Source: Phycisphaerales bacterium (lineage in GTDB: Bacteria; Planctomycetota; Phycisphaerae; Phycisphaerales; UBA1924). Taken from it: 64,000 nucleotides of DNA. The notes beneath the pieces were generated by a model. It saw only the letters and a list, made by a program, of their open reading frames with translations. It had not been told where the DNA came from and searched no databases. This document shows, piece by piece, positions 23,529-42,268 of the stretch (its first letter is position 1; each line of letters opens with the position of its first letter). The translations under genes and the position numbers were made by a program. The DNA is taken from contig DAIOTV010000002.1 of the NCBI GenBank assembly GCA_036751825.1, positions 966 through 64,965 on the forward strand, written 5' to 3'.

Positions 23529-24992
23529 ATGGGCAACGGAGCATCCGGAGAAACGCGTCAGGCGGGCAATCTGTTCGCGCGCACCGTTCCGGGGGGCCGC
23601 GTCCTGATCGCGGGTCTCGCCGGCCTTGTCCCCCTGTCGGGGGCCGCGCTGGTGGCCATCGACGCCCGAGCGGCGGGATCGATTGACTGGATCCTGCTCG
23701 GCTCGGCGGGCGCGTTCGCCGGGCTCTCGGCGTTTGTGCTTATGCGGGCGTTGAAGCGGCTGCGATGCCTTGCCGCCGTGGCCGACGCCGTGCGCACCGC
23801 CACGCTGCCTCACGCGACGGTGGGAGAGCTCCGGGTCGACTCGACGCTCGGCAGAACCGCGGACGCGTGGAACGAACTGATCGAGCGGCTGCTGAGCGGC
23901 AGCGTGTCTCAGGGGATCGAGCCATCGCGAGACCAGTCGGGCGATCCGGTCATCGACGCCCTCGCCGAGGGCGTCCTGGTCGTCGACGGCGACCTGCGGA
24001 TCCTCGCGTCAAATCCCGCGGCCGCCGCGTTGCTGACCGGCGAATCCGACCCGGCGACGGGCTGTTCCCTCACCGATCTCGAGCCGGCGGACCTGGCAGC
24101 GATTGCCCGAACCGTTCTCGCCGGCGGCCCGGTTCGGCGTGAAACCATCGAGTGCGGCACCGAAGCCTCGCCGCAGGTCCTCCGTGTGCGCGTCGCACGC
24201 GCCGCCGGCCTGGCCGATCGAGCCGTCATGACGCTCACCGACATCACCCGGCAGTCCGTCGCCGAGGCGTCGCGCGGCGGATTCCTCGCCCGTGCCACCC
24301 ACGAACTGCGGGCACCGCTTACAAACATCAAGCTCTACGCCGAGCAGGCGATCGAAGAGGGCGACGAGGATCCGCAGCTTCGGCAGGAAGCCCTGAACGT
24401 GATCGGGCGGGAGGTCCTGCGCCTGGAGCGCACCGTGGGCGATCTGCTCCGCGTGTCCGAGCTCGAAAGCGGCGCCCTCCGCGGCTCACGCACGGAAGTG
24501 CAGGTGGCGGACATGCTCTCCGAGATCCGGAGCGCATTCACGGCCGCCGCGGACGCGAAGTCCATCGGGCTGACTCTCGACGCGCCTCCGAAGCTGCCTC
24601 TGCTGTACGGCGACCGGGATCACATCGAGCTGGTCATCCAGAACCTCGTCGGCAACGCCATCAAGTACACCCCGGAAGGCGGCACCGTGCTCATCCGCGC
24701 CGATGCGGACGAGTTCGAGTTCACGCTCGAGGTGATCGATGACGGCATCGGCATCGCGCCGCAGGAGATCCCGCTCGTCTTCGAGACCTTCTTCCGCTCG
24801 GACGACGCCCGCGTCACCGAGACCCAAGGGTCAGGCCTGGGGCTCTCGCTCGCCCGCCAGCTCGCCCGGCAGCACGGCGGGGACGTCACGCTCGAATCGG
24901 AGCTGAACCGCGGCAGCACGTTCACGCTGCGCCTCCCGGTGGGCAACCGTGAATCGCAGCCCTCGATGCCGTCCGACAGGCAGGCGGCCTAA
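23529..24992 (+). CDS. Membrane sensor histidine kinase (2 TM, PAS, HisKA, HATPase_c)
   Basis: H-box ATHELRAPLT, N-box LVGNAIKYTP, G1 DDGIGI and G2 GSGLGLSL. PAS-like IDALAEGVLVVDGDLRILASNPAAAALL. Start trimmed to MGNGASGE (GGAGGG upstream). Confidence 0.85.
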   Translation: MGNGASGETRQAGNLFARTVPGGRVLIAGLAGLVPLSGAALVAIDARAAGSIDWILLGSAGAFAGLSAFVLMRALKRLRCLAAVADAVRTATLPHATVGELRVDSTLGRTADAWNELIERLLSGSVSQGIEPSRDQSGDPVIDALAEGVLVVDGDLRILASNPAAAALLTGESDPATGCSLTDLEPADLAAIARTVLAGGPVRRETIECGTEASPQVLRVRVARAAGLADRAVMTLTDITRQSVAEASRGGFLARATHELRAPLTNIKLYAEQAIEEGDEDPQLRQEALNVIGREVLRLERTVGDLLRVSELESGALRGSRTEVQVADMLSEIRSAFTAAADAKSIGLTLDAPPKLPLLYGDRDHIELVIQNLVGNAIKYTPEGGTVLIRADADEFEFTLEVIDDGIGIAPQEIPLVFETFFRSDDARVTETQGSGLGLSLARQLARQHGGDVTLESELNRGSTFTLRLPVGNRESQPSMPSDRQAA

Positions 24993-25004
24993 GGGGGAGC
25001 AAGC

Positions 25005-25340
25005 GTGCAGATTGACGAGCACAGCCAGGCCGCCGTCACGGTGCTCACGCCGCGCGGCCCTCTGACCGGAGACGACGCCGCGTTGCTCGCCGTGCGCGTC
25101 GACGCGGCTGCGGCGCAGCAGCGGGGGCGCGTCGTCGTGGATCTGTCGCACGTGTCGTTCGTCGACAGCGCCGGGCTTGAAGCGATCGTGACCCTCGGCG
25201 AGCGGTTCGAGAGGATCGCACGCAGCCTCAAGCTGTGCTGTGTCAACGAGACACTCCGCGAAGTGCTGGACCTCACGGAGGTTGACTCGTACTGCGAACT
25301 CTTCGAGGACACCTCCGCGGCCGTGAGGAGCTTCGAATGA
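25005..25340 (+). CDS. STAS-domain protein (anti-sigma-factor-antagonist family)
   Basis: VVVDLSHVSFVDSAGLEAIV, with the conserved phosphorylatable Ser in DSAGL. GTG start preceded by AAGGGGGA. Its stop overlaps the ATG of the secretion ATPase (ATGA). Confidence 0.85.
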   Translation: MQIDEHSQAAVTVLTPRGPLTGDDAALLAVRVDAAAAQQRGRVVVDLSHVSFVDSAGLEAIVTLGERFERIARSLKLCCVNETLREVLDLTEVDSYCELFEDTSAAVRSFE

Positions 25341-27103
25341 GCCTGCGGCGGCGCGGCATCCGGGTCGGCGAAGCGCTCATCGCGGCCGGAGCCATCAGCG
25401 AGCGCGATCTCGAGCGGGCGCTCACCGAGCAGGCCCGCACCGGCGCCCGGCTGGGCGAGGTGCTCGTCGACGAGGGCTACGTGTCGCAGCTGACCATGGT
25501 GCGAACGCTCGCGCAGAGCATGAACGTGCGCGGGTGCCAGCTCCGGCACGGCCTGATCGACCCAGGGCTGCTGTCGATGGTCGGCGAAGAAGAGTGCGAG
25601 CGACTGCGTGTCATCCCGATGTTCCGCGTCCGCGGCGTGATGACGGTCGCCATGTCCGAGCCGCAGAACCTGTCGAAGGTCGACCAGCTGCGCCGCCTGT
25701 CCGGATGCGAGATCCGGCCGGTGCTCGCTCTTGAGAGCAACGTGCTCGAGTTCGTCCGCAAGTATCGAGGCGGCAACGTCAGCGTCGACGAGTTCCTCAC
25801 ATCTCTCAACGAGCAGGATCTGGAGGTCGTCGAGCGCGAGAACGTCGACGAGGGCGCCGAGACCGATCTCGACCAGATGGTCGAGGGAAGCCCGATCATC
25901 AATCTCGTGAACATCGCGCTGCTCACCGCTGTCCGCGACGGCGCCAGCGATGTCCACATCGAGCCGGACAAACGCGGCACCCGGATCCGCTACCGCGTCG
26001 ACGGGGTGCTGCGCGAGCTCATGAACCCCCCGCCGGGCGTGCACGCGGCGATCGTCAGCCGGATCAAGGTCATCGGGAAGATGGACATCGCCATCAAGCG
26101 CATGCCGCAGGAGGGGCGCGTCCGCATCATCGCCGAGGGGCGCGAGATCGACCTCCGCGTGTCGAGCATGCCCACGCTGCTCGGCGAGAAAATGGTGATC
26201 CGCGTCCTCGACAAGTCGAACCTCCGCATCAGGCTCGACGAGCTCGGCTTCAAGGGCCCGGCGCTCGAGACCTTTCAGCGGATGCTGCGGAAGCCTCACG
26301 GGCTTGTGCTGGTCACCGGGCCCACCGGGTCCGGCAAGACCACGACGCTGTATTCCGCGCTTGACCAGCTGCGCACCCCGGAGCGGAACATCGTCACCGT
26401 CGAGGATCCCGTCGAGTACCAGCTCGACATGGTCAATCAGATTCAGGTGCACGAGCAGGTGGGACTCAGCTTCTCGCACTCGCTGCGGAGCATCCTCCGG
26501 CAGGACCCGGACATCATCATGATCGGTGAGATCCGGGACGAACAGACCGCGCGGGTCGCCGTTCAGGCCGCGCTGACCGGACACCTCGTGCTCGCCACGC
26601 TTCACACCAACGACGCCACGGGCGCCGTCGCGCGGCTCGGCGACATGGGCATCGAGCCCTACCTGCTCTCCGGCTCGCTCAACGGCGCCGTGGCGCAGCG
26701 GCTTGCCCGCACGCTCTGCCCGCATTGCACCGTCAAGTACTACCCGGGCGAAGCCGTGCTGATCGACGCCGGCATCCCCGAGGACGCAGGAAGACCCTTC
26801 CGACGCGGGGCCGGGTGCCAGCAGTGCCACGATTCCGGCTTCCAGGGCCGCATGGGCGTGTACGAGGTCATGGAGGTGACGCCGGAGCTGCGGCGGATGA
26901 TCCACCTCGGCGAGCCCTCGCACGAACTTCGCGCCGAGATCAGGCGGAACGGTGTGGCGACCCTGCGTGACGAAGGGGTCGATCTCGCTCGCGCGGGGCG
27001 GACAAGCCTCGAAGAAGCCCTGCGCGTCACCCACAGCGATGACGCGGCCGCTCCGGCACCGAATAGCGTATCCCAACGCAGCACGGTGGAGCGAGCGGCA
27101 TGA
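25337..27103 (+). CDS. GspE/PilB/MshE-family secretion ATPase with an N-terminal MshEN-type domain
   Basis: Walker A GPTGSGKTTT, Asp box, Walker B and His box are present, and the tetracysteine reads CPHC...CQQC. The N-terminus carries two RxGxxLIxxGxIxxxxLxxxLxxQ-type motifs. Confidence 0.95.
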   Translation: MSLRRRGIRVGEALIAAGAISERDLERALTEQARTGARLGEVLVDEGYVSQLTMVRTLAQSMNVRGCQLRHGLIDPGLLSMVGEEECERLRVIPMFRVRGVMTVAMSEPQNLSKVDQLRRLSGCEIRPVLALESNVLEFVRKYRGGNVSVDEFLTSLNEQDLEVVERENVDEGAETDLDQMVEGSPIINLVNIALLTAVRDGASDVHIEPDKRGTRIRYRVDGVLRELMNPPPGVHAAIVSRIKVIGKMDIAIKRMPQEGRVRIIAEGREIDLRVSSMPTLLGEKMVIRVLDKSNLRIRLDELGFKGPALETFQRMLRKPHGLVLVTGPTGSGKTTTLYSALDQLRTPERNIVTVEDPVEYQLDMVNQIQVHEQVGLSFSHSLRSILRQDPDIIMIGEIRDEQTARVAVQAALTGHLVLATLHTNDATGAVARLGDMGIEPYLLSGSLNGAVAQRLARTLCPHCTVKYYPGEAVLIDAGIPEDAGRPFRRGAGCQQCHDSGFQGRMGVYEVMEVTPELRRMIHLGEPSHELRAEIRRNGVATLRDEGVDLARAGRTSLEEALRVTHSDDAAAPAPNSVSQRSTVERAA

Positions 27104-28320
27104 AGTTCCGGTACGAAGCATTTAATCCGGACGGGTCGCTTGCCGCCGGTGAGATCGACGCCGACTCGCGGGCGGAAGCCGAGCAGGCGATCCGAGCGCA
27201 GGGCAGATTCCCCTCCGTCGTCTCCGCGGCGGCGACCGGCAGGCAGAAGCCCCGGCGAACCGGTCTTCAGCTCGGGCAGAACCGCCTCCGCCAGCTGACG
27301 GCGTTCACCCGCCAGCTGACTGTGCTGATCTCTAGCGGGACGCCCCTCGTGGACGCGATCGAGGCCGCGGAACGCCAGACGCCGCCGGGTCCTTGGCGAG
27401 ACATCATCGAGGATGTGCGGTCCCATGTCGAGCGGGGCGAGTCCCTCTCGGCCGCCATGGCGCGGCATCCGGGCCACTTCGACAGCGTCTACCGCAGTCT
27501 CATCCAGGCGGGCGAGTCGGGCGGCGACATGCACCGCATTCTCGAACGCCTCGCGATGATGTCGCGCCAGCGTCAGGTCGTGCAGAACACCGTCATGGGG
27601 GCGATGCTGTATCCGTCGCTGCTCCTGTTCGTATCGGGAGGCGTGCTCGTCGGGCTGTTCCTCGCCGTGCTGCCGCGGTTCGAGCAGTTGTTCGAAACAC
27701 TTGATGCGCCGCTGCCGCCGACCACGGCGGTTCTCATCGAGAGCTCGGCGTTCGTCCGGTCCAATGCGATCTGGATCGTCCTGGGAATCGCGGCGGCCGT
27801 CTCCGGTGTGATCGCCTACGCCCGGTCCGCGGACGGGCGGGCGGCGGTGCAGCGGCTCGTGGTGCGCCTGCCGCTGATCGGCGCGGCGGTGCGATCGTTC
27901 GTGGTGGCCCGCCTCGCACGGGTGCTGGGCGTGATGCTCGAAGCTCGGGTCCCGCTGCTCGAGAGTCTTCGGGTCGCGCAGGCGAGTGCCAGGCATATCG
28001 AGTACGAGGCCATCATCGGCAACGCAACGGATCGGGTCGAGCGTGGCGAGGCGCTGAGCGACTCGATCGAGGACGGGTTCCTGATCCCCTCCTCGCTCGC
28101 CGAGGCCATCCGCAACGGCGAGCAGAACGGTCGCGTCGGTGAGGTGCTCGTTGTGCTGGCCGACATGCTCGACGAGGACAACGCGATCTTTGCTCGCTCG
28201 ATCACGAGCATCCTCGAGCCGGCGATCCTGTCCCTGCTCGGCGTGGTCGTCGGAGGCGTTGCGATGAGTCTCTTCCTGCCGCTCTTTGATCTCACGGCCT
28301 CGACCGGAGGGGCACCCTGA
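27100..28320 (+). CDS. GspF/PilC-family platform protein
   Basis: Two T2SSF-type repeats, 3 TM segments, and ATGA overlap with the ATPase gene. Confidence 0.9.
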   Translation: MKFRYEAFNPDGSLAAGEIDADSRAEAEQAIRAQGRFPSVVSAAATGRQKPRRTGLQLGQNRLRQLTAFTRQLTVLISSGTPLVDAIEAAERQTPPGPWRDIIEDVRSHVERGESLSAAMARHPGHFDSVYRSLIQAGESGGDMHRILERLAMMSRQRQVVQNTVMGAMLYPSLLLFVSGGVLVGLFLAVLPRFEQLFETLDAPLPPTTAVLIESSAFVRSNAIWIVLGIAAAVSGVIAYARSADGRAAVQRLVVRLPLIGAAVRSFVVARLARVLGVMLEARVPLLESLRVAQASARHIEYEAIIGNATDRVERGEALSDSIEDGFLIPSSLAEAIRNGEQNGRVGEVLVVLADMLDEDNAIFARSITSILEPAILSLLGVVVGGVAMSLFLPLFDLTASTGGAP

Positions 28321-29189
28321 TGCTGCCGGTCTCGCATCAGACCCAGATCGGGATCGATCCCGCCGAAGACGCCGTCCGCGTCGTGGCCGCCCGCGGCAAC
28401 GTGGTGCTCGCCGCTGTGGAGGTGCCGATTGTCAAGGGTGTTGTCCCCCGTGCGGAGGCGCTGCGGCGTGCCCTGGCGGCGGTCGAGCGTCGCGGCGTTC
28501 AGGATCTCGGGCGCTGCGTCGCGATCGCACCGATGTCAATCATGACCAACGCGGTGCTGGAACTGCCTCCGCTGTCCTCGGGGGCGCCGATCGACGACCT
28601 CGCGGCGGCGGAAATGACGCGGGGCACGGACGGTGGCGGCGTCGAGGTGGCCGTCTTTCCCGTGCGAAACCGAGAGAACGGCCCCTCGGAGTACTTCGTC
28701 GCTTCCGCCCGCCGCGATGGTGTGCTGGCCCTGGTCGACGACTTTGCGGCGATCGGGGTCGAGGTGCGTGCCGTGGATGCGCCGGTGACCGCGCTGAGCC
28801 GGGCGTGCGGCACGGTGAACTGCCTCATCGCTTCCATCGTGAGGGGCGGGGCTGCTCTGCACGCCGTGCAGGGCGGAACGCCGATTCTGTCGCGGACCGT
28901 TCCCCTCACCGCCTCGCGGCTGTCGAGTGCGTTGCTTATCTCCGAGATCGACCGGTGCGCCGGATACCTCGCGACCTACCGCGCCGACGCCGCGATCGAG
29001 GAGATCGTGCTCGTCGGTTCCGCGGACACGCTGCCCGGCGCGGCGCGTGACATCGCGTGCGAGTTTGATGTCGGCGTGCGGGTGTGGGGGCGGCCAGCCG
29101 AGGGCGGCTCGGTCGACGGGCTCGGCCCGGCGTTTGCCGGCGCCTACGGCGCTGCGCGATGGGGACACACGGGGAGGGCAGCGGCATGA
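28320..29189 (+). CDS. PilM/MshI-like actin-fold assembly protein (short form)
   Basis: N-terminal QIGIDPAEDAVRVVAAR resembles the PilM GxDIGxxxxK phosphate-1 strand. Position between the platform protein and the PilN-like gene. 1-nt overlap (TGATG). Confidence 0.55.
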   Translation: MLPVSHQTQIGIDPAEDAVRVVAARGNVVLAAVEVPIVKGVVPRAEALRRALAAVERRGVQDLGRCVAIAPMSIMTNAVLELPPLSSGAPIDDLAAAEMTRGTDGGGVEVAVFPVRNRENGPSEYFVASARRDGVLALVDDFAAIGVEVRAVDAPVTALSRACGTVNCLIASIVRGGAALHAVQGGTPILSRTVPLTASRLSSALLISEIDRCAGYLATYRADAAIEEIVLVGSADTLPGAARDIACEFDVGVRVWGRPAEGGSVDGLGPAFAGAYGAARWGHTGRAAA

Positions 29190-29785
29190 AGTCCGTCAAC
29201 CTGCTGCCCAAGCCGATCCTGGCCCAGCGGACGCGACGCATCCGCCGCACGATCTGGACCCGTTCGCTGCTGGCGTACTGCATCGTTCTTCTGGCCGCCG
29301 TTCTCGCCGTCGAGGGCGTGCTGATCGAACCGACGGAGGCCCTTGAGGCTCAGTCGCTCGCCGTGGCGTCAGACATCGCGGCCAACGAGGCCCGGCTGGC
29401 GCTCCAGCAAGAACTCAAAGAGTCGCTGGTCGCCGAGCTCGCGGTCTTGACCGAGATCCACGGCCAGCCCGATTGGAGCGTGCTGATCCGGCACATCAGC
29501 GAGCACCGAGGCGAGGGTGTTGCGATTCGCTCGGTACGCGTTGCGCTCGCAGCGCAGTCCGCCTCGCAGATCACGCCGAGCCAGCTCGCGCGCGGGCCCT
29601 ACCGCGTCGAGATGAGCGGCCTCGCGCGCACGCAGTCGGACGTGACCGAGTACATGGTCCGCCTCGAACGGGCCGGGCTGCTCGGAGAGATCAGGCTGCA
29701 GGGGACCTCCCCGACACGCGTGGGCGATGAGACCGCGTTCGTTTTCTCGCTTCAGGCTCGCCTGGGAGCGGAGGGCCAAAGCTGA
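29186..29785 (+). CDS. PilN/GspL(C-terminal)-like bitopic assembly protein
   Basis: MKSVNLLPKPILAQRTRRIRR followed by one TM, the canonical PilN N-terminus (INLLP motif). ATGA overlap. Confidence 0.65.
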   Translation: MKSVNLLPKPILAQRTRRIRRTIWTRSLLAYCIVLLAAVLAVEGVLIEPTEALEAQSLAVASDIAANEARLALQQELKESLVAELAVLTEIHGQPDWSVLIRHISEHRGEGVAIRSVRVALAAQSASQITPSQLARGPYRVEMSGLARTQSDVTEYMVRLERAGLLGEIRLQGTSPTRVGDETAFVFSLQARLGAEGQS

Positions 29786-30342
29786 TGCTCAGAAACCCCA
29801 TCGATCGCGCCGGGTGTGCCATCGCCGTTGCCATCACGGCGATCGGATACGCGGGCGGAATCCGACCCGTCGTCGCTCATCAGACGCAACGCATCATGAT
29901 GGAACGCGACATCGCGAGCAAGCAGGGCGATCTCGAGCAGCTCCGCGGCGATGTGGTCGAGAAGGAAGCGGTTGTGCAGACGCTGCAGAGACGGGTGGGC
30001 GACTTTCGCACGAGCTTTGAGGCCTCGCCGCGGCTGAACGAACGGATCGGTGAGCTCGCGGCGCTGGCGGAGGTCACCGGAGTTGCCGTCGGGTCGATCC
30101 GGCCCGGGGAGCCAACCGCAGGCGACGGAGTCCGGCAGCAGCCGGTATCGATCTCGGGCCAGGGAGCGCCCGGAGACATCGCCAGGTTCCTGTCGCAGCT
30201 GCGGGTCGTGTTCCCGGACATGGGCGTGCGCAGCTTCACCGTCAGCGGTCAGTCCGCCGAGACGTCGTTGATCGCCGCCGAGCTGGTGTGGTTTACCGGT
30301 TCCAACGATCAGTCCGATTCGGAGGCCGCCCCGTCGCGGTAG
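29785..30342 (+). CDS. PilO/GspM-like bitopic assembly protein
   Basis: One N-terminal TM (CAIAVAITAIGYAG), a coiled-coil segment and a C-terminal alpha/beta region. Called by position and topology only. Confidence 0.45.
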   Translation: MLRNPIDRAGCAIAVAITAIGYAGGIRPVVAHQTQRIMMERDIASKQGDLEQLRGDVVEKEAVVQTLQRRVGDFRTSFEASPRLNERIGELAALAEVTGVAVGSIRPGEPTAGDGVRQQPVSISGQGAPGDIARFLSQLRVVFPDMGVRSFTVSGQSAETSLIAAELVWFTGSNDQSDSEAAPSR

Positions 30343-30391
30343 CGCACGCGGATTGCTTGCCGCCGCGTCGATGCGATTGCATGCTTGGGCC

Positions 30392-30901
30392 ATGGCCAGG
30401 GGGAAGCCGAACCGGATCATGCTGGGGTTGCTGGGCGTCGCGGTGCTTGCGCTGCTGACCGACCAGCTGCTTCCGGCCTCAAGCCACGCCGACGAGGCGT
30501 TCGTGCCCACGGGCACCGAGGCGCAGGCGATCGAGGCGGCTCCGTCTCCCGACGCGCTGAGGAACGGGCCAACACTCTCGGACCGCTTCGCCGGTTTCGA
30601 GCAGCCCGGCGAGCCCGACCGCGATGCCATCGGGGCCGCCTTCGCCCCCCTCGCCACAAAGGACGAGTCGACCGGGCCGGCCGCGGCCGAGCCGGAATCG
30701 AACGAGGTCGGTCTCAAGCTCTCCGCGATTCTTCGTCGGGAAGACGGGAACATCGCCGTGATCAACGGCCGCCCGCTCCGAGTGGGCGACTCGATCGATG
30801 GAGCGCGGATTCTCTCGATCGAGGGGCAGCGGGTCCGGGTCGAGACCGCCGTGGGTGCGATAACGCTCGAGCTGCAGCGTCCGAAGCTGCAAGCCGACTA
30901 G
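30392..30901 (+). CDS. GspB/MshK/PilP-like protein
   Basis: N-terminal TM, then the C-terminal LSAILRREDGNIAVINGRPLRVGDSIDGARILSIEGQRVRV typical of the T2SSB/MshK family. Alternative starts at 30353 or 30371. Confidence 0.55.
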   Translation: MARGKPNRIMLGLLGVAVLALLTDQLLPASSHADEAFVPTGTEAQAIEAAPSPDALRNGPTLSDRFAGFEQPGEPDRDAIGAAFAPLATKDESTGPAAAEPESNEVGLKLSAILRREDGNIAVINGRPLRVGDSIDGARILSIEGQRVRVETAVGAITLELQRPKLQAD

Positions 30902-30993
30902 CGCTGCCGCGTGCGCGCCCTGTTGGGCGATTTCTCCTTGCAACAGGCGTCAAGTCCGCCGGCGATCGGGACGATCTCCTCGGGGAGGTCCAC

Positions 30994-31473
30994 ATGGGGG
31001 AATTGCAAATGATGTCAAGAGCGCGCCGGCGAGGGTTCAGCCTGATCGAACTGGTGATTGTGGTGGTGATCCTCGGGATCATCGGAGCGATCGCCATCCC
31101 GCGGATGAGCCGCGGCTCCGAGGGCGCGGCCGAATCGGCCCTCAAGGCCAACCTGCAGGCCCTGCGAGGGGCGATCGATCTGTACGCCGCCGAGCATCAG
31201 GGCGCGTACCCGTCGGTCGGCGATTTCGTCGACCAGCTCACGCTCTACAGCGATGCCAGCGGAGCCACCAGTGCGACCAAAACCGGCGACTTCATCTACG
31301 GCCCGTACCTGCGATCGATCCCGCCGCTGCCCGTTGGAACGAACCAGGGCAATTCCGGTGTCGCCGCGGCAGACGGCGCGGGCGTCGGCTGGCTGTACAA
31401 CGAAACCGCGGGCACCATCGTCTCGAACACCGGCACCGAAGGCAATGGCACAACGCAGTGGAACGCGTTCTAG
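30994..31473 (+). CDS. Major pseudopilin (GspG-like; prepilin-type N-terminal methylation domain)
   Basis: RRRG/FSLIELVIVVVILGIIGAIAIPR with Glu+5. No C-terminal Cys pair. GGGGAGG upstream. Confidence 0.85.
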   Translation: MGELQMMSRARRRGFSLIELVIVVVILGIIGAIAIPRMSRGSEGAAESALKANLQALRGAIDLYAAEHQGAYPSVGDFVDQLTLYSDASGATSATKTGDFIYGPYLRSIPPLPVGTNQGNSGVAAADGAGVGWLYNETAGTIVSNTGTEGNGTTQWNAF

Positions 31474-32026
31474 TCTGAGCCGGCGTGGTTTCACGCTGGT
31501 CGAGCTCGCGGTGGTCATCGCGGTTCTCGCGGTGATCTCCGCGGTGGCGATCCCTCGGTTCGCATCCGCCTCGGCCCGTTCGAGGCTGGACGCCGCCGCG
31601 GCCAGGGTCGTGCAGGACATCGCCGTCTCCGCCGCGAGCGCGCAGGCGATGGGATCCGATCGCCAGATGGTCTTCGACGCTCCCACCGATCAGTACCTGC
31701 TCGTCGGCGTGCGGACACGCGGCGGCGGGACCTTCCGGTCGGTCCGGCTCGGCGATCCGCCCTACGAGACCAACATCGTCTCGGCGACATTCGAGGGCTC
31801 GCCGCTGCTGCGCCTCAGCGGCTACGGCGTGCCGGAGACGACCGGCACGATCAACCTCGCGGTGGGCCGCCAGGGCAAGCGCATCGTGTTGAACGCCGGA
31901 ACCGCCGCCGTGCAGGTCCGTTCGCTCGACCTTTCCGACGACGCAACCGGTGACGTGCTGCCGAGCGTCACGCGCGACGTTGACGCCGGCACGATTGACA
32001 TCGGCGCTTCGGTGAGCTTCCGGTGA
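31445..32026 (+). CDS. Minor pseudopilin (GspH-like)
   Basis: SRRG/FTLVELAVVIAVLAVISAVAIPRF. Overlaps the preceding gene by 29 nt. Confidence 0.7.
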   Translation: MAQRSGTRSSLSRRGFTLVELAVVIAVLAVISAVAIPRFASASARSRLDAAAARVVQDIAVSAASAQAMGSDRQMVFDAPTDQYLLVGVRTRGGGTFRSVRLGDPPYETNIVSATFEGSPLLRLSGYGVPETTGTINLAVGRQGKRIVLNAGTAAVQVRSLDLSDDATGDVLPSVTRDVDAGTIDIGASVSFR

Positions 32027-32526
32027 GGCGCGCGCCGCGACCACGCCGGGCGTTCACACTCGTCGAACTCGTGTCGAGCCTCTTCGTGTCGTCCGTCGTT
32101 GTCGTTGCCATGGCGTCCACTATCGGGCTGATGACGAGGGCGCTGCCGGACGCCTCGCTGCCGACGCAGACCGGCATCGTTGTGCAGCGGACACTCGACA
32201 TGATCGCGAACGACGCCCGCTTCGCCGCCGATGTCACGATCGTCGATGACGGCGAGGTCAGCATGCTCCTCCCTGATCGCGACGGCGACGGCTCGCCCGA
32301 CGTCGTCACCTATCGCTGGGCCGGTTCCGACGGCGACCCGCTCACCCGCGAGCACAAGTCGCTCGGCGAGGCTCCCCTGCTCACCGCCGTTGACGAGGTC
32401 AGCTTCGCGTGGGCCAGCTTCTCCGAGCCGGCCGGGCCCTTGCACAAGTGTCTCATGATCTCCATCCGCGTCGGCGCGACCGAGATGTCGATCGGCCCGC
32501 GCTGCCTGAATCTGGAGGCCGAATGA
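32023..32526 (+). CDS. Minor pseudopilin (GspJ/PilW-like)
   Basis: PRRA/FTLVELVSSLFVSSVVVVAMA. GTGA overlap. Confidence 0.6.
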   Translation: MRRAPRPRRAFTLVELVSSLFVSSVVVVAMASTIGLMTRALPDASLPTQTGIVVQRTLDMIANDARFAADVTIVDDGEVSMLLPDRDGDGSPDVVTYRWAGSDGDPLTREHKSLGEAPLLTAVDEVSFAWASFSEPAGPLHKCLMISIRVGATEMSIGPRCLNLEAE

Positions 32527-33131
32527 GGCTCGCCCGAGGAATCGCGATGGTCGAGGCCGTGCTCGCGACGGTGATCGTCGGCGGGCTCGCGGTCGCCGCC
32601 ATGTCGCTCGTCGGCACCATCGCGACCGAGCGGCGGGTGGCGGCGGACCGCAGTGTCGGGCACCTGCTTGCCAGGCAGCTCGCCGAGGAGATCGCGGCCC
32701 TGCCACTCGACCACACAACAAGAAGCGGGGCCGAGGGCGGCGAGGATAGCGAGGACGGAAACGACAACGGGGGCCGAAGCGGTGGACTTGTCGGCGGCAT
32801 CCTCGGTGGAGTGGCCGACGCGGTGGCTGGTCTTGCGGGCGAGGAACCAGACGAGCCGGACTCTGCCGACCGAAGCCTGCTGCTCGATGTGCTCGACTAC
32901 GACGGGTACACCAAGTCGCCCCCGGTCGACCGGGAAGGCACCGCCCTTCCGGGCGTCGAAGCCTGGATGCGGTCGGTCGAGGTCACCGAGGTGCTGCCCG
33001 GGGACCCCGATGGACCCGAGGTCGGCGGCACCGGCGTGTACCGCGTCCGCGTCACCGCCACCTTGAACGGCCGCCTCGCGGGCGAGATGGTCTTCTACCG
33101 ATCCCTCGCAGGCGACGAGGCGGTGCGATGA
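32523..33131 (+). CDS. Minor pseudopilin (GspI-like) with a Gly/Asp/Glu-rich insertion
   Basis: LARG/IAMVEAVLATVIVGGLAVAAM with Glu+5. ATGA overlap. Low-complexity insertion at 32715..32876. Confidence 0.6.
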   Translation: MRLARGIAMVEAVLATVIVGGLAVAAMSLVGTIATERRVAADRSVGHLLARQLAEEIAALPLDHTTRSGAEGGEDSEDGNDNGGRSGGLVGGILGGVADAVAGLAGEEPDEPDSADRSLLLDVLDYDGYTKSPPVDREGTALPGVEAWMRSVEVTEVLPGDPDGPEVGGTGVYRVRVTATLNGRLAGEMVFYRSLAGDEAVR

Positions 33132-34312
33132 GCCCGCGCCGTCAGGAACGCGGCGGCGTGTACCTGCTCGTGCTCGTCACGGCGGGTGTCGCGATGTCGA
33201 TGGGCGTGCTCGCGGTCGCCGCGGCCGCCTCCCAGCGGGAGATCCAGGAGATCGCCATCGACCGCGAACGCGCCGGCGCGATCGCCGAGTCGGGCATCCA
33301 CCTGGCCCTCGACGCCATCGAAGGCAACAGCACCTGGCGTCTGACCCCCGCAGGCCGCGTGCTCGGCCCGCTCACGCTCGACCGAGGACAGCTCTGGGTG
33401 GACGCCACCGATGCCGACGGCAGCCTGACCGACGATGACAGCGACCCGTTCACGCTCACCGCGACGGCGACCTTCGGCCAGGCGAGGCAACGCGTCGCGG
33501 TCGACATCGAGTCCGCGTTCGAGCCGATCGAAGCTCTGGAGCATGCGCTGGTCGCCCACGGCGGCGTGACCAATACGGGAGACATCACCCTGAGCGTGGA
33601 CACAGCCACGCTTGACATCTCGATCCCGCTTATCGCCGAGCTCGACCCGTGGAATCGCATGCGCGAGATGGGAGACATCGCCCTGCCCGATCCTGGGGTC
33701 ATCGCCCAGTATCAGGCGATGGGCACCGTGCTGCCTCAATCCATGAGCAACGGCGGTGAGGGCATGCTCTACGAGAAACTGCTGCTGACCATCGACGCTG
33801 CGGAGTCGAAGGCTGACCGAACAGCTCCGAACGCCGACCGCGTGTATGTGATCAACGGTCGCGGCGGACCGGTACTTCTTACGGACCTAAGGCTCGTCGG
33901 CACGCTCGTTGTCGTCAACGCCACCTCGCTCGAGATTTCGAGCCCGAAGACGATGCGCCCCTCGGCCGAGGGACACCCGCTGCTGCTCACCGCGGCGCCG
34001 CTCACGCTCGATGGCGTCAGCAAGAGGAGCACCAACAACGCGCTCAAAGGAGAGGACGCCAGACCGACCGGGCCCGACTTCGACCGAAAGGGCAACCAGG
34101 GTGCGCAAGGCCTGATCTACGTCAACAACAACGTGGCGATCGTGAACGAGCTTGACCTGATCGGCACGCTGATGTCGACCGGCCAGGTGTTCGTATCTGG
34201 AGAAGCGAACATCGAGCGGAACGACGCCTATCTCGAAGCTCCGCCGCCGGGCTTCCGCGGAGGCACGGTGCCCAGGATCGTGGCGGGCAGCTGGCGAGCG
34301 GTGGTCGACTAG
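33128..34312 (+). CDS. Large minor pseudopilin-like protein without Glu+5 (GspK/PilX-like by position)
   Basis: The N-terminal hydrophobic helix GGVYLLVLVTAGVAMSMGVLAVAAA lacks Glu+5, as in GspK. Last gene of the operon. ATGA overlap. Confidence 0.5.
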   Translation: MSPRRQERGGVYLLVLVTAGVAMSMGVLAVAAAASQREIQEIAIDRERAGAIAESGIHLALDAIEGNSTWRLTPAGRVLGPLTLDRGQLWVDATDADGSLTDDDSDPFTLTATATFGQARQRVAVDIESAFEPIEALEHALVAHGGVTNTGDITLSVDTATLDISIPLIAELDPWNRMREMGDIALPDPGVIAQYQAMGTVLPQSMSNGGEGMLYEKLLLTIDAAESKADRTAPNADRVYVINGRGGPVLLTDLRLVGTLVVVNATSLEISSPKTMRPSAEGHPLLLTAAPLTLDGVSKRSTNNALKGEDARPTGPDFDRKGNQGAQGLIYVNNNVAIVNELDLIGTLMSTGQVFVSGEANIERNDAYLEAPPPGFRGGTVPRIVAGSWRAVVD

Positions 34313-34337: not shown

Positions 34338-35825
34338 CTACGCCGCTCTGACGCCGATGCCCGACTGGGTCGCGTGCTCGGCGATCATCCGGTCGAACTC
34401 GGACAGGTCGAGCGACAGCAGCGCGTCGACCACGCCCGGGTCGAGCTGCGAACCGGCGGACCGGCGGAGCTCGGCGATGACCTCCTCGCGCGGCATCTTC
34501 GACCGGTACGAGCGGGTTGAACTCATCGCATCGAAGGTGTCCGCGGCGGCGACGATCCTCGCGCTCAGCGGGATGCTGTCGCCCGTCAGCCCCGCCGGGT
34601 AGCCCCGTCCGTCCAGCCGCTCGTGGTGGTGGAGCACGGCTGGCAGGATGTCCTCGAGTCCCTTGAGGTCCTTCAGAATGCGGTGCCCGATCTCCGGATG
34701 CCGCTTGATCTGGTCGTACTCGTCGTCGGTAAGGCGGCCGCTCTTCTGGAGCACCGCCTCGGCGACACCGATCTTGCCGACATCGTGCAGCAGCCCGGCG
34801 ACCCGAAGCCGTTCCGCGTGCGCGGCGTCGAGCCCGAGCCCGATCGCGATCTGCTGGCTGAGATACGCCACCCGCTGCGCGTGGCCCCGCGTGTAGCGGT
34901 CCTTGGCGTCGATCGCCGCCGACAGCGACTCGAGCACGCCCATCGCCATTTCGCGCTGCTCGTTGAACAGCCGGCAGTTGGTCAGGAAGGCCGACAGCAG
35001 CCCGACGACGGCGTCGATCAGCTTGGTGTCGTACGAGCTGACGTTGCCCGCCTCGCGATGCTTGTCGCCGGCGATGATCATGCCCACGATCCCGCGGTCG
35101 TTCCGCAGCGGCCGAACGATCGCCTGCGGCCCGTTGAACGCGTCCAGCGACATGCCGTCCAGCGCCATCACGCCCAGCAGCCGGTCGAGGTGTTTCAGCT
35201 CCGTCCCGTGCTTGGCTTCGCCGTCCCAGTGCGTCTTTCCCGCGAGCATGGGTCCGACGTCCGCCGCGTCCGACAGGTGCACCGCGACATACCCGAACGC
35301 GAGCGTCTGCCGGACGCGTTTGCAGGTGACCGACAGGAACCGCTGCGGCTCGTCGAGGCTGGCCATCGAGTTGCCCAGCGCGTACATGAGCTCCAGCATC
35401 TCGAACGCGTCGGTGATCTGATCGGCGAGATCCGTGACTTCGTCCTCGAGCTCGTTGATCGCGAGCCCGTCGCGGATTATCTGCTCGAGCGACGGGATGC
35501 AGCGAAGCAGCTCCGCATCGGGCGCGATCGCCCCGCCCGACCCGGGCCTGCAGGTGACCAGCAGCGAGCCGAGGTCGTCGTCGCGATGCTGTAGCGGCAG
35601 CCTGACCCGCGCCGCGTGAGGTCCTTCGGTGACCACGGCGCCGACGGGGTGGTCCGCAAGCCGACGGAGATCGCCGTCGGCGGCGCCCAACCCGTCGGGC
35701 CTCGAGCCGTCCGGCGCGAGGTAGACGCACTCGAGGCCGAGCTCGGAGGAGCGAGCCTGCACGATTTTCAGCAGAGGCGCGATCCGGCGATCGATCCGGT
35801 GTGGCTCGCACGCATGGTCGGTCAC
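34338..35825 (-). CDS. GAF-domain HD-GYP c-di-GMP phosphodiesterase
   Basis: HD-GYP motifs HAQRVA, LLHDVGKIGV and HHERLDGRGYPAGL. GTG start at 35825 overlaps the receiver gene stop (GTGA). The rest of ORF 34338..36095 upstream is read-through of the neighbouring gene in another frame. Confidence 0.85.
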   Translation of the reverse strand: MTDHACEPHRIDRRIAPLLKIVQARSSELGLECVYLAPDGSRPDGLGAADGDLRRLADHPVGAVVTEGPHAARVRLPLQHRDDDLGSLLVTCRPGSGGAIAPDAELLRCIPSLEQIIRDGLAINELEDEVTDLADQITDAFEMLELMYALGNSMASLDEPQRFLSVTCKRVRQTLAFGYVAVHLSDAADVGPMLAGKTHWDGEAKHGTELKHLDRLLGVMALDGMSLDAFNGPQAIVRPLRNDRGIVGMIIAGDKHREAGNVSSYDTKLIDAVVGLLSAFLTNCRLFNEQREMAMGVLESLSAAIDAKDRYTRGHAQRVAYLSQQIAIGLGLDAAHAERLRVAGLLHDVGKIGVAEAVLQKSGRLTDDEYDQIKRHPEIGHRILKDLKGLEDILPAVLHHHERLDGRGYPAGLTGDSIPLSARIVAAADTFDAMSSTRSYRSKMPREEVIAELRRSAGSQLDPGVVDALLSLDLSEFDRMIAEHATQSGIGVRAA

Positions 35826-36235
35826 GCCGCCGCCTTCCTGTCCGGAGCCCACGACAGGATCCGGCACACCAGGTCGGCGACTGCGGTCGCGCTGAACGGC
35901 TTCTCGAGCACCTCGACGATGCGGGTCTGCCGCAACCGGGTGTCGTCCAGCAGAAAGCCCCGCCCGCTGATCATCACGATCGGGACCTGAGAGGTGACCG
36001 GGTGCCCCGCGAGGGCGAGTGCCATCTCGAGCCCGTCCATTTTGGGCATCTGAAGATCGCTCAGGATCAGCGACGGCGGCCGCTCGACCGCGCACGCGAA
36101 CCCCTCGGCGCCGTTCCGGGCCACCTTCACATCCGCGCCGAGCTTTGCGAGCTTACGTCCGAGAATGTGGGTGATGTGCGGCTCGTCATCGACGAGGAGA
36201 ATCACGGGCCACGCTGTCCGTTCGGCGTCGGGCAT
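35822..36235 (-). CDS. Stand-alone response-regulator receiver (CheY-like)
   Basis: ILLVDDEP, phospho-acceptor context LILSDLQMPKMDG, and a conserved EKP (Lys) near the C-terminus. Confidence 0.9.
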   Translation of the reverse strand: MPDAERTAWPVILLVDDEPHITHILGRKLAKLGADVKVARNGAEGFACAVERPPSLILSDLQMPKMDGLEMALALAGHPVTSQVPIVMISGRGFLLDDTRLRQTRIVEVLEKPFSATAVADLVCRILSWAPDRKAAA

Positions 36236-39312: not shown

Positions 39313-41327
39313 CGTTTCGCACCCGTGCCTTCGATCTGTTCCTGCTGGCTCCGCTCGGCATCGCCGTCGTCGCCTACCAGCTCGCGGAGCCGGGCGAGAT
39401 CATCCCGCCGATCGCCCTGATCGTCTGCGTCCTCGCGCGCGCCGTGCAGGATGTGTCCGGTTGGGTGCTCGGGCGTCGGCCGATCGCCGTGGCCGTCCTG
39501 CTTGCGATCGCGTATGTGCTCGTTGACATCAGCCGAAACCAGTTCCAGGTCACGCTGTTCGCGGACTTCATGATGATCCTTGGCGCGCTCAAGGCGATGG
39601 AACGGCGGACGCCCCGCGACGACGGGCAGCTGCTGGTCGTCTCGATCTTTCTCGCCCTGTCGGCCGCGGTGTCGAGCAACCGGATGGGCACGGGTGTGCT
39701 CCTGGTCGTGTATCTCTTCGCGTTGATGCTCGCCGTGATGCGGATGCAGATCGACGCGGCGACCTGGCCCGCGACGCCCCGGCGTGGACGGCTGTGGCCG
39801 CTGCTCGGTGCGTGCATCGTGGGCACCACGCTCGTCGCCTCGGTGGCGTTCGTGCTGCTGCCGCGGAACACCATGCGATGGTCGTCCAACCAGTTCACCC
39901 CGGTGACGCAGCGTGTGTCCGGCTTTCGAGAGTCCGTGGAGCTCGGCTCCGGCGGGCTGATCTCGCAGGATCCGCGCGAGGTGATGCGCGTCTGGTCCGA
40001 GTCGAGCCTCGGCGAGCCGGCCCCGATGGCCGAGGGCGCGCCGCTGTACCTCCGCGGCGTCGTGCTCAGCGAGTACGAGCCGGGCAGCCGCGGCGGCAGG
40101 TGGAGCCGCGAAGAACGCCCGCGTCGCGTCCGCAGCGAAGAGTTCGGCGTGCTGCCCGGCACCTCCGTCTCGATCGGAAGCGCCGACCGCGCCGAGCAAA
40201 CGGCCGTCCTCCGCGTCGTGCAGTACGCGGGCGCGAGCACCGCGGGGACCGTCTTCACCGCGTGGCGGCCGATCTTCGCCACATTCGTTCAGGCCGAGGG
40301 CACCCTGCTGCGCGACGAAGACGACTTCAGCATGCGGTTCGATGGCTCGCTCGGCGGAACGATCGAGTATCGCATCACCTACGGCGCGGACGCCGAGCCG
40401 CGGGCGGCGGGCCCGCGCGGCAGGCCGCCGGCGCCGAGCGGGTCCGCCATCCTCCGCGAAGCCGCCGTGCGCGCGCTCGAGTCCGCCGGGATCGAGCCGG
40501 ATCCGAGCCTTCGGCCGACCGCCCGCGATGGCGAAGCGATCCGTGCGATGGAGAGCTGGCTCCGATCGTCGAAGGGCTACACGCTCGAGATCGAGCCAGC
40601 GCCTCCGGGTCGAGACCCGACCGAGTGGTTCGTCGAGGAAGCCGAGGCCGGCCACTGCGAATACTTCGCGTCGGCGCTCGCGCTGCTCTGCCGCGAAGTC
40701 GGCATCCACAGCCGGGTCGCGACCGGGTACCTCTCCATGGTTGAAGACGCCGACGAGGGCTTTGCCCGGGTCCGCCGATCCGACGCGCACGCGTGGGTCG
40801 AAGCGCAGATCGCGCCGGGGTACTGGGGCGTGTTCGACGCCACCCCGGCGGCGCTCGGCCAGCCGCTGAACGCGCCCGTTGATCCCTTCACCCGGTGGCT
40901 GAGCTCGCTCGAATCGCTCTGGCTTGCGTCGTTCATCTCCTTCGATGCGCGTTCGCAGTCCAGCCTGAGCCGGTCGCTTCAGCGGTCGCTGCCGTTCGAT
41001 CGGCTCAACCCCTCGTCCGAAGAGGTAAGCGAGGCCGCTGACCTGCCCTGGACGCGCATCGCGGCGGGCGCGGTGTTCTTCGGGGGGATGGCGGCGTTCA
41101 TCCTGCTGGCTCATCGCCGTTGGCGCGGCGGGGGTTCCCGGCCGCTGTACGGCGTCGGCGCAGACGCCATCAGACGCCGCGACCAGCTCGACCTCGCCTG
41201 GCAGCAGGCCGGCCGGCCGAGACCCGCCGGAACCACACTCCTCGCGCACGCCACGCGGCTCGGCGGGTCCGACACGGACGAGGCGTCGGCGATCGAGCGG
41301 CTCGCGTTCGGATCGGTCCGAGAATAG
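39309..41327 (+). CDS. Transglutaminase-domain membrane protein (TgpA-like)
   Basis: Multi-TM N-terminal half. Catalytic Cys in GHCEYFASA and His in DAHAWVEA. GTGA overlap with the DUF58 gene. Confidence 0.85.
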   Translation: MTFRTRAFDLFLLAPLGIAVVAYQLAEPGEIIPPIALIVCVLARAVQDVSGWVLGRRPIAVAVLLAIAYVLVDISRNQFQVTLFADFMMILGALKAMERRTPRDDGQLLVVSIFLALSAAVSSNRMGTGVLLVVYLFALMLAVMRMQIDAATWPATPRRGRLWPLLGACIVGTTLVASVAFVLLPRNTMRWSSNQFTPVTQRVSGFRESVELGSGGLISQDPREVMRVWSESSLGEPAPMAEGAPLYLRGVVLSEYEPGSRGGRWSREERPRRVRSEEFGVLPGTSVSIGSADRAEQTAVLRVVQYAGASTAGTVFTAWRPIFATFVQAEGTLLRDEDDFSMRFDGSLGGTIEYRITYGADAEPRAAGPRGRPPAPSGSAILREAAVRALESAGIEPDPSLRPTARDGEAIRAMESWLRSSKGYTLEIEPAPPGRDPTEWFVEEAEAGHCEYFASALALLCREVGIHSRVATGYLSMVEDADEGFARVRRSDAHAWVEAQIAPGYWGVFDATPAALGQPLNAPVDPFTRWLSSLESLWLASFISFDARSQSSLSRSLQRSLPFDRLNPSSEEVSEAADLPWTRIAAGAVFFGGMAAFILLAHRRWRGGGSRPLYGVGADAIRRRDQLDLAWQQAGRPRPAGTTLLAHATRLGGSDTDEASAIERLAFGSVRE

Positions 41328-41428
41328 CGGCGTCCCGCACCCGAACCCGTCCCGAAGCCGGCAGCGCATCAAGGTGGCCGAGGCGGATGCCGATCCCTCT
41401 CTGGATTGCGATTCGCAGGGGGTCTGGT

Positions 41429-42268
41429 ATGCCGGCACGACGATCGAGAACCGAGCGGTGGCAGGAATCACTCCGCGAGCTCGCGGGCCGACGCGGGCCG
41501 ATCGAGATCAGCATCCCCGCGCACCAGGCCAAGTCGCTGAACTGGCGCGTGCGGCTGCTCGACATCCGGGGCAACCGGCTCATCGTCGAGCAGCCCATCA
41601 CCCTCGGCCGGCGCGTGCCCGTTTCCGTCGGAGCTTCGATTGTCGGCGGGATCTCCATCGGTCAGAACCGCTGGATGTTCACCACGGCCGTTCTCGCCGC
41701 GGGCGAGCAGACCATCGGCGGCCGCCCGCAGCATGTCCTCGAACTGCTGATGCCCGAGGAAGTCGAACGCTGCCAGCGTCGTTCGTTCTACCGCATCTCG
41801 ACCGCGGCGCTCGATCTGCCCGAGGTCGCCTGCGCGGCGCTCGGCGATCCGGGGGAGGCCGTGCCGCTCCAGGTCGCCACGCGTGCCGCCATCCTCGACG
41901 CCTCCGGATCGGCGACCACCCCCGACGCCGAAACGCTCGGATTGGCCTCGCCCTCGACCGGGCTGACGGGCCACGGCGAGCTTCTGAACATCGGCGGCGG
42001 CGGGGCCTGCCTGCGGATGCCGCCCTCGTGCGGATCGCTGCTCGACCGTCCTTCCTACTTCCTGCTGACGCTCGACCTGACCCCCTCCGTGCCGCTGCCG
42101 CTGCCGATCACCGCGAAGCTGGCCCACACACGGATCGACTCGAGCCAGAGCACCCAGGCCGGCTTTTCGTTCGACTTCTCGCAGAATCAGGGGTACGAGC
42201 CGTTCGTCAGCGAGGTCATTTGCCGGTACATCGCCGGCCTCCAGTCCGATTTCCGCGAAGCCGCCTAG
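41429..42268 (+). CDS. PilZ-domain protein (YcgR-like two-domain architecture)
   Basis: RRSFYR (RxxxR) and NIGGGG (variant of D/NxSxxG) about 75 aa apart. AGGGGG lies 7 nt upstream of the ATG at 41429. Alternative start at 41387. Confidence 0.7.
   Translation: MPARRSRTERWQESLRELAGRRGPIEISIPAHQAKSLNWRVRLLDIRGNRLIVEQPITLGRRVPVSVGASIVGGISIGQNRWMFTTAVLAAGEQTIGGRPQHVLELLMPEEVERCQRRSFYRISTAALDLPEVACAALGDPGEAVPLQVATRAAILDASGSATTPDAETLGLASPSTGLTGHGELLNIGGGGACLRMPPSCGSLLDRPSYFLLTLDLTPSVPLPLPITAKLAHTRIDSSQSTQAGFSFDFSQNQGYEPFVSEVICRYIAGLQSDFREAA

Follow-up and report, generated by a model that had tools for sequence, protein, structure and literature searches.

A STAS protein inherited with the MshEN-type ATPase of planctomycete type IV filament operons, a candidate partner of the filament motor

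The 64,000-nucleotide stretch analysed here (the window; positions 966–64,965 of contig DAIOTV010000002.1, assembly GCA_036751825.1) comes from a 2.6-Mb, 84%-complete genome of a Phycisphaerales bacterium, has a GC content of 68%, and carries a type IV filament operon in which the gene for the assembly ATPase is immediately preceded by one for a small STAS protein. We propose that this protein is a direct, possibly phospho-switchable, subunit or partner of the ATPase, an MshEN-type motor predicted to be gated by cyclic di-GMP (c-di-GMP), and from comparative sequence evidence we put the probability of this reading at roughly 60%; the phospho-switch is the less certain refinement of it. The motor is the favoured target because the order of the STAS and ATPase genes is fixed, and because natural fusions join STAS to the ATPase only. 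A preliminary description of the same DNA had suggested that the STAS protein acts on the machinery rather than on a sigma factor, a suggestion now favoured by the phylum-wide pairing of the two genes, by its survival through rearrangement of the surrounding regulators and by the fusions.

The STAS gene (25005–25340, forward strand) has a GTG start at 25005 and a TGA stop at 25338–25340, and encodes a single-domain protein of 111 residues (PF01740, 61.5 bits). It follows the first gene of the operon, a membrane-anchored PAS-HisKA-HATPase_c histidine kinase (23529–24992, forward; Pfam and NCBIfam), after a 12-nt spacer (24993–25004) that contains the Shine-Dalgarno-like sequence GGGGGAG. At the other end its stop overlaps, in the sequence ATGA (25337–25340), the start of the gene for the 588-residue GspE/PilB assembly ATPase (25337–27103, forward). 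Reading of the sequence bears out the coordinates of the kinase, the spacer and the overlap as first described, together with the serine context FVDSAGL, whose serine is Ser55 (25167–25169), within DSAGLE, at the position phosphorylated in SpoIIAA and RsbV. The window had also been said to hold no RsbW/SpoIIAB-type kinase, PP2C phosphatase or sigma factor, and this holds for the entire contig, on which there is no RsbW-type kinase, PP2C or sigma-70-family gene and the only PF13581 match is the HATPase domain of the histidine kinase itself.

On the evidence of gene order, the pairing of STAS with the ATPase is more than chance. An orthologue of the STAS protein (E ≤ 1e-5) is found in 39 of 41 related genomes, and kinase, STAS and ATPase genes have the same order and orientation in all 19 loci of relatives other than the window's own, at identities of 41–85% for STAS and 66–96% for the ATPase. 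The same three genes, with the same 4-nt overlap, are present in a metagenome-assembled genome of 47% GC from a different class (Pirellulales). At a stricter threshold (E ≤ 1e-15), 66 of 401 Planctomycetota genomes contain a match to the STAS profile, and a GspE/PilB ATPase, at identities down to 45%, lies directly downstream in 28 of the 29 best non-own Planctomycetota loci; the STAS protein of the sole exception (L050) has the canonical motif DSSGLG and is probably an ordinary antagonist. A metagenome set comprised 80 contigs, 64 of them with enough downstream sequence to judge the ATPase, which comes right after STAS in every case (64/64), with the kinase right before STAS in 62 of 64. Neither an RsbW gene nor a PP2C was found within ±7 kb of STAS in the 80 metagenome loci, and no RsbW kinase, PP2C or sigma factor was found in 19 extended loci. 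The method was able to detect such neighbours, since weak STAS matches in other phyla (L002–L007), used as a control, lack the ATPase and in two cases adjoin RsbW or PP2C genes. A scan of the genome collection found no split STAS–ATPase pair outside Planctomycetota, and three genomes without a STAS orthologue (G025, G039, G319) are also without an orthologous ATPase, their best ATPase matches being 39–41% identical. At the level of gene content and order, these comparisons show that the pair is inherited as a unit across the Planctomycetota. The preliminary description had staked its proposal on the adjacency recurring beyond this genome, and it does so both across the phylum and in the metagenomes.

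Natural fusions provide a second line of evidence. A HMMER search with the ATPase returned homologues with N-terminal extensions of about 115–130 residues, among them the 681-residue protein P0212, which has STAS, MshEN and T2SSE domains by Pfam and whose residues 21–112 match the STAS family profile at an hhalign probability of 94.5%. Its gene (L186:9001–11046; 40% GC) occupies the same operon position as the split pair in the window, following a PAS-HisKA kinase and preceding T2SSF and pilin genes, with PilMNO and a secretin encoded upstream. A search of Planctomycetota with the N-terminal 280 residues of a fusion identified another, an uninterrupted 701-residue open reading frame (ORF) in genome G356 (L199:5602–7707, minus strand) that has STAS, MshEN and T2SSE domains by Pfam and the motif VDSAGVE. 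The third, P0136 (685 residues), was recognised by profile comparison, its STAS match having an hhalign probability of 81%. STAS, MshEN and T2SSE thus make up a single protein in at least two lineages. All three fusions join STAS to the ATPase; none joins it to an HD-GYP or GGDEF domain, and no HD-GYP gene was seen near the two fusion loci L186 and L199. In the Planctomycetota search, split pairs also aligned colinearly along the fusion, their two parts separated by no more than one or two stop codons.

Several related observations were made in these searches. In four cases a single stop codon separates in-frame STAS and ATPase sequences (G391:C31:107240–108016, G242:C2:5610–6290, G290:C89:7910–8590, G404:C68:164495–165172), which have the appearance of recent intermediates in a fission or fusion, or else may be sites where the stop codon is read through. 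A word-index search, in which the STAS region of a 513-residue open frame was scored alone, gave no long proteins with this STAS domain, and one from the N-terminus of the fusion matched only itself. Apparent fusions in open frames of 570–730 residues (L087–L089, L092, L093) were rejected as overlapping-frame artefacts of high-GC DNA; in these loci STAS is a separate gene after an HD-GYP gene, or in L092 after an RsbW-like gene. Also rejected as ATPase fusions were L090:1450–3345 and L091:1295–3199, which lie in an unrelated context and encode a protein of 631–634 residues with a family-related N-terminal STAS domain followed by about 500 residues without a Pfam match; in L090 the gene sits between those for SelA and a TPR protein, with no ATPase nearby. 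Other MshEN-T2SSE ATPases carry a different N-terminal domain at the STAS position, a receiver in P0236 (724 residues) and TPR repeats in P0146 (780 residues), which suggests that exchangeable regulatory modules may dock quite generally at the N-terminus of these motors. Many of the top ATPase homologues (P0125, P0128, P0129 and similar) are about 1000 residues long with two matched stretches, and seem to consist of two GspE/PilB ATPases joined in tandem within a single chain. Upstream of the fused gene in L199, a 1010-residue ORF (L199:8789–11821, minus strand) combines Secretin_N and Secretin domains with a C-terminal FGE-sulfatase (formylglycine-generating enzyme-like) domain, although this longest-ORF call overlaps a TPR gene and its start is unsure.

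The ATPase itself scores as an MshE-type protein (T2SSE, PF00437, 448 bits; MshEN, PF05157, 45.7 bits), and the c-di-GMP motif at residues 9–60 (25361–25516, forward) reaches 61.9 bits with NF053729 against a cut-off of 38. It falls below the equivalog cut-offs for both PilB (TIGR02538, 580.4 against 675.65) and GspE (TIGR02533, 575.3 against 630.25), and on these scores the machine is not assignable to either the type IVa pilus or the type II secretion system. A maximum-likelihood tree was built from 41 ATPases, comprising 26 linked to a split STAS gene, 3 fused, 3 within the same clade without STAS, and 9 PilB paralogues. A single clade, to which the window's ATPase belongs, holds all 26 split-linked and all three fused proteins; the nine PilB paralogues lie outside it, have no STAS gene upstream and are mostly encoded beside a second, PilT-like ATPase gene. 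Two of the fusions are sister to the window's subclade (support 99/98) and the third is in another subclade on a long branch. The tree, taken with the co-occurrence of STAS and ATPase, points to an association that is old, vertically kept and occasionally lost, with fusion or splitting at least twice.

The AlphaFold2 model of the STAS protein (mean predicted local distance difference test score, pLDDT, 94.7) has as its best Foldseek match SpoIIAA bound to SpoIIAB (chain 1thn_B, TM 0.85), and RsbV is also alike. The nearest solved proteins by sequence are TM1442 and SpoIIAA, while MlaB, the STAS protein of the Escherichia coli MlaFEDB lipid transporter, is a marginal match in the PDB (E 4.7e-3); the score with TIGR00377 (54.0 bits) is just over the cut-off of 53.45, and that with NF033618 (mlaB_1) is 26.4 bits against a cut-off of 90. 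There are 1832 database relatives at E ≤ 1e-8, of which the best 120 are 111–120 residues long, nearly all of them 111. Among 133 family members the serine at the phospho-position, at the start of helix 2, is invariant (133/133), and the flanking positions are also strongly kept (Asp−1 in 129, Gly+2 in 120, Leu+3 in 130, Glu+4 in 131). Since Glu+4 is kept in the family and in all three fusions, and the genome's four canonical STAS paralogues lack it, DSxGLE is, by alignment, a signature of the family.

The C-terminal Arg-Ser-Phe is likewise almost invariant, and here the codons carry a second message. At 94 of 133 loci the codon for Arg108 is AGG, which accounts for only 5.8% of arginine codons in the window's genes, and this AGG forms AGGAG (25326–25330, forward; codons Arg108–Ser109), 6 nt ahead of the ATPase start. 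Codon use across the 133 loci is thus direct sequence evidence for a conserved ribosome-binding site of the ATPase gene embedded in the end of the STAS gene. The arrangement fits translational coupling and may, though it need not, lead to equal amounts of both proteins. NTGA at the STAS stop, found in 109 of 133 loci, is partly a mere result of a final codon ending in TG before TGA.

Around this pair lie the genes of a wider signalling module. The kinase has PAS_4, HisKA and HATPase_c domains, an N-terminus with two hydrophobic segments and a TAA stop at 24990–24992; its longest ORF begins at GTG 23349, but ATG 23529 is the likelier start because the earlier one would overlap a divergent gene. 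Downstream of the ATPase come the GspF/PilC platform protein (27100–28320, forward; PF00482, 173 bits), again coupled through ATGA (27100–27103), so that such an overlap is not special to the STAS–ATPase junction, and then the remainder of the filament operon (28320–34312, forward), with PilM-like, PilN-like and unassigned genes and several N-methyl (pseudo)pilins (PilN and N_methyl by Pfam). The final gene of the operon is at 33128–34312, and homologues of the operon genes keep their order in relatives. Convergent on the operon end is an HD-GYP c-di-GMP phosphodiesterase (34338–35825, minus strand; HD_5, 133.9 bits), preceded on the same strand by a stand-alone receiver (REC; 35822–36235; PF00072, 69 bits), the likely partner of the kinase. 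About 5 kb past the HD-GYP gene, an ORF at 41120–42268 has a weak match to PilZNR (YcgR-type; 22 bits, cut-off 23) and could be a further c-di-GMP receptor.

In the extended loci the conserved set consists of the PAS-HisKA kinase, the stand-alone receiver, a GAF-HD-GYP protein, STAS, the MshEN ATPase and GspF, with receiver and HD-GYP genes alongside the pair in 18 of 19. Their arrangement varies. Families f8, f21, f54 and f94 are colinear (kinase, REC, HD-GYP, then STAS and ATPase), and in the last three HD-GYP and STAS are separated by a GAF-GGDEF cyclase gene (L060:7104–8645, L063:6297–7979, L068:7133–8824, L070:9630–11249, L064:9619–11193; in f94, L059, probably so, to judge by position). 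These GGDEF-bearing loci would hold writer, eraser and reader of c-di-GMP in one operon. In the window's clade the kinase is ahead of STAS, with REC and HD-GYP at the far end of the operon and usually convergent; HD-GYP is at the operon end in G002, G032, G225 and G027, and directly upstream of STAS in other clades, while in L058 REC and HD-GYP are divergent and upstream. Several genomes have a second, paralogous module (HD-GYP, STAS, ATPase, GspF) in which the HD-GYP gene overlaps the STAS start. Through all these rearrangements of kinase, REC, HD-GYP and GGDEF genes STAS stays immediately upstream of the ATPase, and the pair can be regarded as the invariant core of the module.

Because the kinase, REC and HD-GYP set recurs around the MshEN ATPase, the kinase is probably part of a c-di-GMP circuit in which the MshEN domain is the receptor, a connection missed in the preliminary description. 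Its target is likely this kinase/receiver/HD-GYP module and not the STAS protein. Kinase, receiver and HD-GYP domains are all present in the cluster, as in HD-GYP two-component systems of the RpfC/RpfG type, although receiver and HD-GYP are separate polypeptides here, unlike in RpfG. Most likely, the kinase would phosphorylate the stand-alone receiver that precedes HD-GYP, and HD-GYP would set the local c-di-GMP read by MshEN. We considered the kinase as a direct serine kinase of STAS and rejected this as the main reading, as its HisKA H-box is canonical and a receiver comes after it across the phylum.

For the STAS protein, we suggest that it would bind the ATPase at its N-terminal region and modulate ATPase assembly or activity, with Ser55 of DSxGLE predicted to lie within the interface, perhaps as a phospho-switch. 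In this way both c-di-GMP and the state of STAS would feed into the motor. Any enzymes acting on Ser55 would have to be encoded elsewhere in the genome, which contains six STAS-domain genes (one in a SulP transporter), two RsbW-type kinases, seven PP2Cs and 16 sigma-70-family genes. The PP2Cs have GAF, dCache-HAMP, FHA or unassigned N-termini; none has a receiver domain by Pfam and none is at the locus. Each RsbW-type kinase adjoins another STAS gene in all six genomes checked, and the five near-complete relatives with the module have exactly two such kinases each, every one with its own STAS beside it, and 6–10 STAS matches per genome. The two kinases of the present genome (G000:C13:2637–3526 and G000:C1:8119–9641) both lie beside STAS genes and neither is near a sigma-factor gene; the C1 kinase, of 388 residues, has about 250 unassigned residues at its N-terminus. 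Given these genes, a phospho-switch acting in trans is possible, in which one or other of the two RsbW-type kinases would phosphorylate Ser55 and one of the seven PP2Cs would remove the phosphate. The fuller version, in which STAS is made in step with the ATPase, and phosphorylation of Ser55 by this partner-switching network of two kinases and seven sensor PP2Cs makes it bind or release the ATPase N-terminus, is tentative, and we would put the odds somewhat against it.

Several observations weigh against a STAS protein that acts on the motor. Overlapping genes are the rule across the whole operon, and coupling alone says little. Three ATPases in the same clade (L177, L178, L184) have no STAS, so that the partner is dispensable in some lineages. 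Both fold and sequence are closest to the classical anti-sigma antagonists (SpoIIAA–SpoIIAB, RsbV, TM1442) and not to MlaB, and an invariant serine in DSxG has the look of a classical RsbW substrate in a genome that encodes RsbW-type kinases. The phospho-switch in particular has to contend with the degenerate motif of two of the three fusions (NSAFLE and TSKLLE), in which the DSxG context is altered and the serine and Glu+4 are kept.

This last point would be expected if STAS were always part of the ATPase, supporting its structure or stability without any signalling function, as in the case of MlaB, which is needed mainly for the stability of MlaF (PMC7367683), with the serine merely an interface residue. 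The tight coupling of the pair, the existence of fusions and the lack of an RsbW-type kinase or PP2C at the locus would all agree with such a role. However, the neighbourhood is dense with signalling genes (kinase, REC, HD-GYP and sometimes GGDEF), and the positions of DSxGLE are kept in 120–133 of the 133 split forms, a degree of conservation beyond the needs of a lone interface serine, and we consider a purely structural role unlikely.

It is similarly improbable that STAS is an adaptor for HD-GYP, or for GGDEF where present, tuning local c-di-GMP as HsbA does on the cyclase HsbD in Pseudomonas, or bridging these enzymes to the ATPase. The near-constant company of REC and HD-GYP, the second module type with its overlap of HD-GYP and STAS genes, the cyclase gene next to STAS in f21, f54 and f94, and the c-di-GMP receptor domain on the ATPase are what an adaptor would predict. 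In the window's clade, however, HD-GYP lies 9 kb off, on the other strand, and STAS still overlaps the ATPase, and the fusions, all to the ATPase, include none to HD-GYP or GGDEF, with no HD-GYP gene near two of the fusion loci.

Several STAS proteins per RsbW kinase are found in Chlamydia and Mycobacterium, and the SpoIIAA-like fold and invariant serine (with the match to TIGR00377, and the kinases, phosphatases and sigma factors encoded elsewhere) keep alive the reading of an ordinary anti-sigma antagonist, phosphorylated by and sequestering an RsbW-type protein, whose place in the operon would tie partner switching to pilus expression, for example by transcriptional feedback; yet this is the least probable of the alternatives and quite doubtful, as the gene is never beside RsbW, PP2C or sigma genes in > 100 loci where the control loci did show RsbW or PP2C, each RsbW-type kinase has an adjacent STAS of its own, Glu+4 is absent from the canonical paralogues, and fusion to an ATPase is hard to square with a freely switching antagonist. 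A second, sigma-related role for a STAS protein that is primarily a partner of the ATPase is possible.

Comparison with known systems would place the present STAS protein at the junction of two known kinds, as a STAS protein with a non-sigma target and as a type IV filament ATPase cofactor. One functional parallel is the pair MlaB–MlaF, in which a small single-domain STAS protein is likewise encoded in the operon of its ATPase with no sigma factor, and the operon linkage, fusion and co-inheritance with the ATPase seen here are as for a putative subunit of this type. The partner of MlaB is the nucleotide-binding domain of an ATP-binding cassette transporter, in contrast to the PilB/GspE hexameric ATPase here, and our protein is much closer to SpoIIAA and RsbV in sequence. 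It shares with SpoIIAA, RsbV and TM1442 the fold, the length and a phospho-position serine after aspartate, but unlike these it is not accompanied in any locus by a neighbouring RsbW/SpoIIAB kinase, PP2C or sigma factor, has glutamate for glycine at +4 and a conserved C-terminal Arg-Ser-Phe, and is attached or fused to a secretion-type ATPase. In MlaB, Thr52, the residue at the phospho-position, is in the STAS–ATPase interface, and T52E weakens binding to MlaF (PMC7367683). All4160 of Anabaena PCC 7120 is a STAS–glycosyltransferase fusion that receives its phosphate from kinases encoded at other loci and loses it to a phosphatase of the PP2C type (PMC13555669). A trans-written switch on Ser55 would resemble both. 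All4160 is, as we propose for the present protein, a case of STAS acting directly on a cell-surface assembly enzyme, although the target enzyme differs, and in our family STAS is usually a separate polypeptide whose phosphorylation is predicted.

Other STAS systems with a non-sigma output are tied to c-di-GMP or surface behaviour and have two-component input, namely HptB-HsbR-HsbA-HsbD of Pseudomonas aeruginosa and SypE-SypA of Vibrio fischeri; in these the receiver is fused to PP2C and/or an RsbW kinase beside STAS, whereas here it stands alone and is paired with HD-GYP. On the side of the motor, small cytoplasmic proteins or domains placed N-terminally on the extension ATPase control filament assembly according to c-di-GMP in PilZ–FimX (Xanthomonas, Pseudomonas) and in the MshE switch of Vibrio cholerae, and in PdeK–PdeR a two-component system with a c-di-GMP phosphodiesterase feeds into PilB control (PMC11656802). 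None of the PilB cofactors described is a STAS protein, and the same 2024 review does not mention STAS or anti-sigma proteins. In a 2021 review of STAS-only proteins, the type III system of Bordetella is the sole context in which secretion comes up (PMC8256260). Our full-text literature searches found no paper linking a STAS protein or anti-sigma antagonist to PilB, GspE, MshE or another pilus or secretion ATPase, in agreement with the preliminary description, whose author was not aware of such a link for type II secretion or type IV pilus systems.

The regulators known for pilus and secretion motors are c-di-GMP domains, proteins of the PilZ/FimX type and a few others. Most of what is known of STAS proteins concerns the switching of sigma factors, and non-sigma targets (such as MlaF, a glycosyltransferase and a diguanylate cyclase) continue to be added. 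If the present reading is correct, a STAS protein tied or fused to one clade of MshEN-type ATPases would represent a new class of cofactor for type IV filament motors, and would provide a concrete target for the numerous orphan STAS and PP2C genes of the Planctomycetota. The local c-di-GMP circuit, complete with kinase, receiver, HD-GYP, sometimes GGDEF, and the MshEN receptor, may serve as a compact model for the integration of signals on a motor. Should the phospho-switch also prove true, serine phospho-signalling and c-di-GMP would be integrated on the filament motor itself, PilB/GspE would gain a cofactor of a new class, and partner switching would gain a new output.

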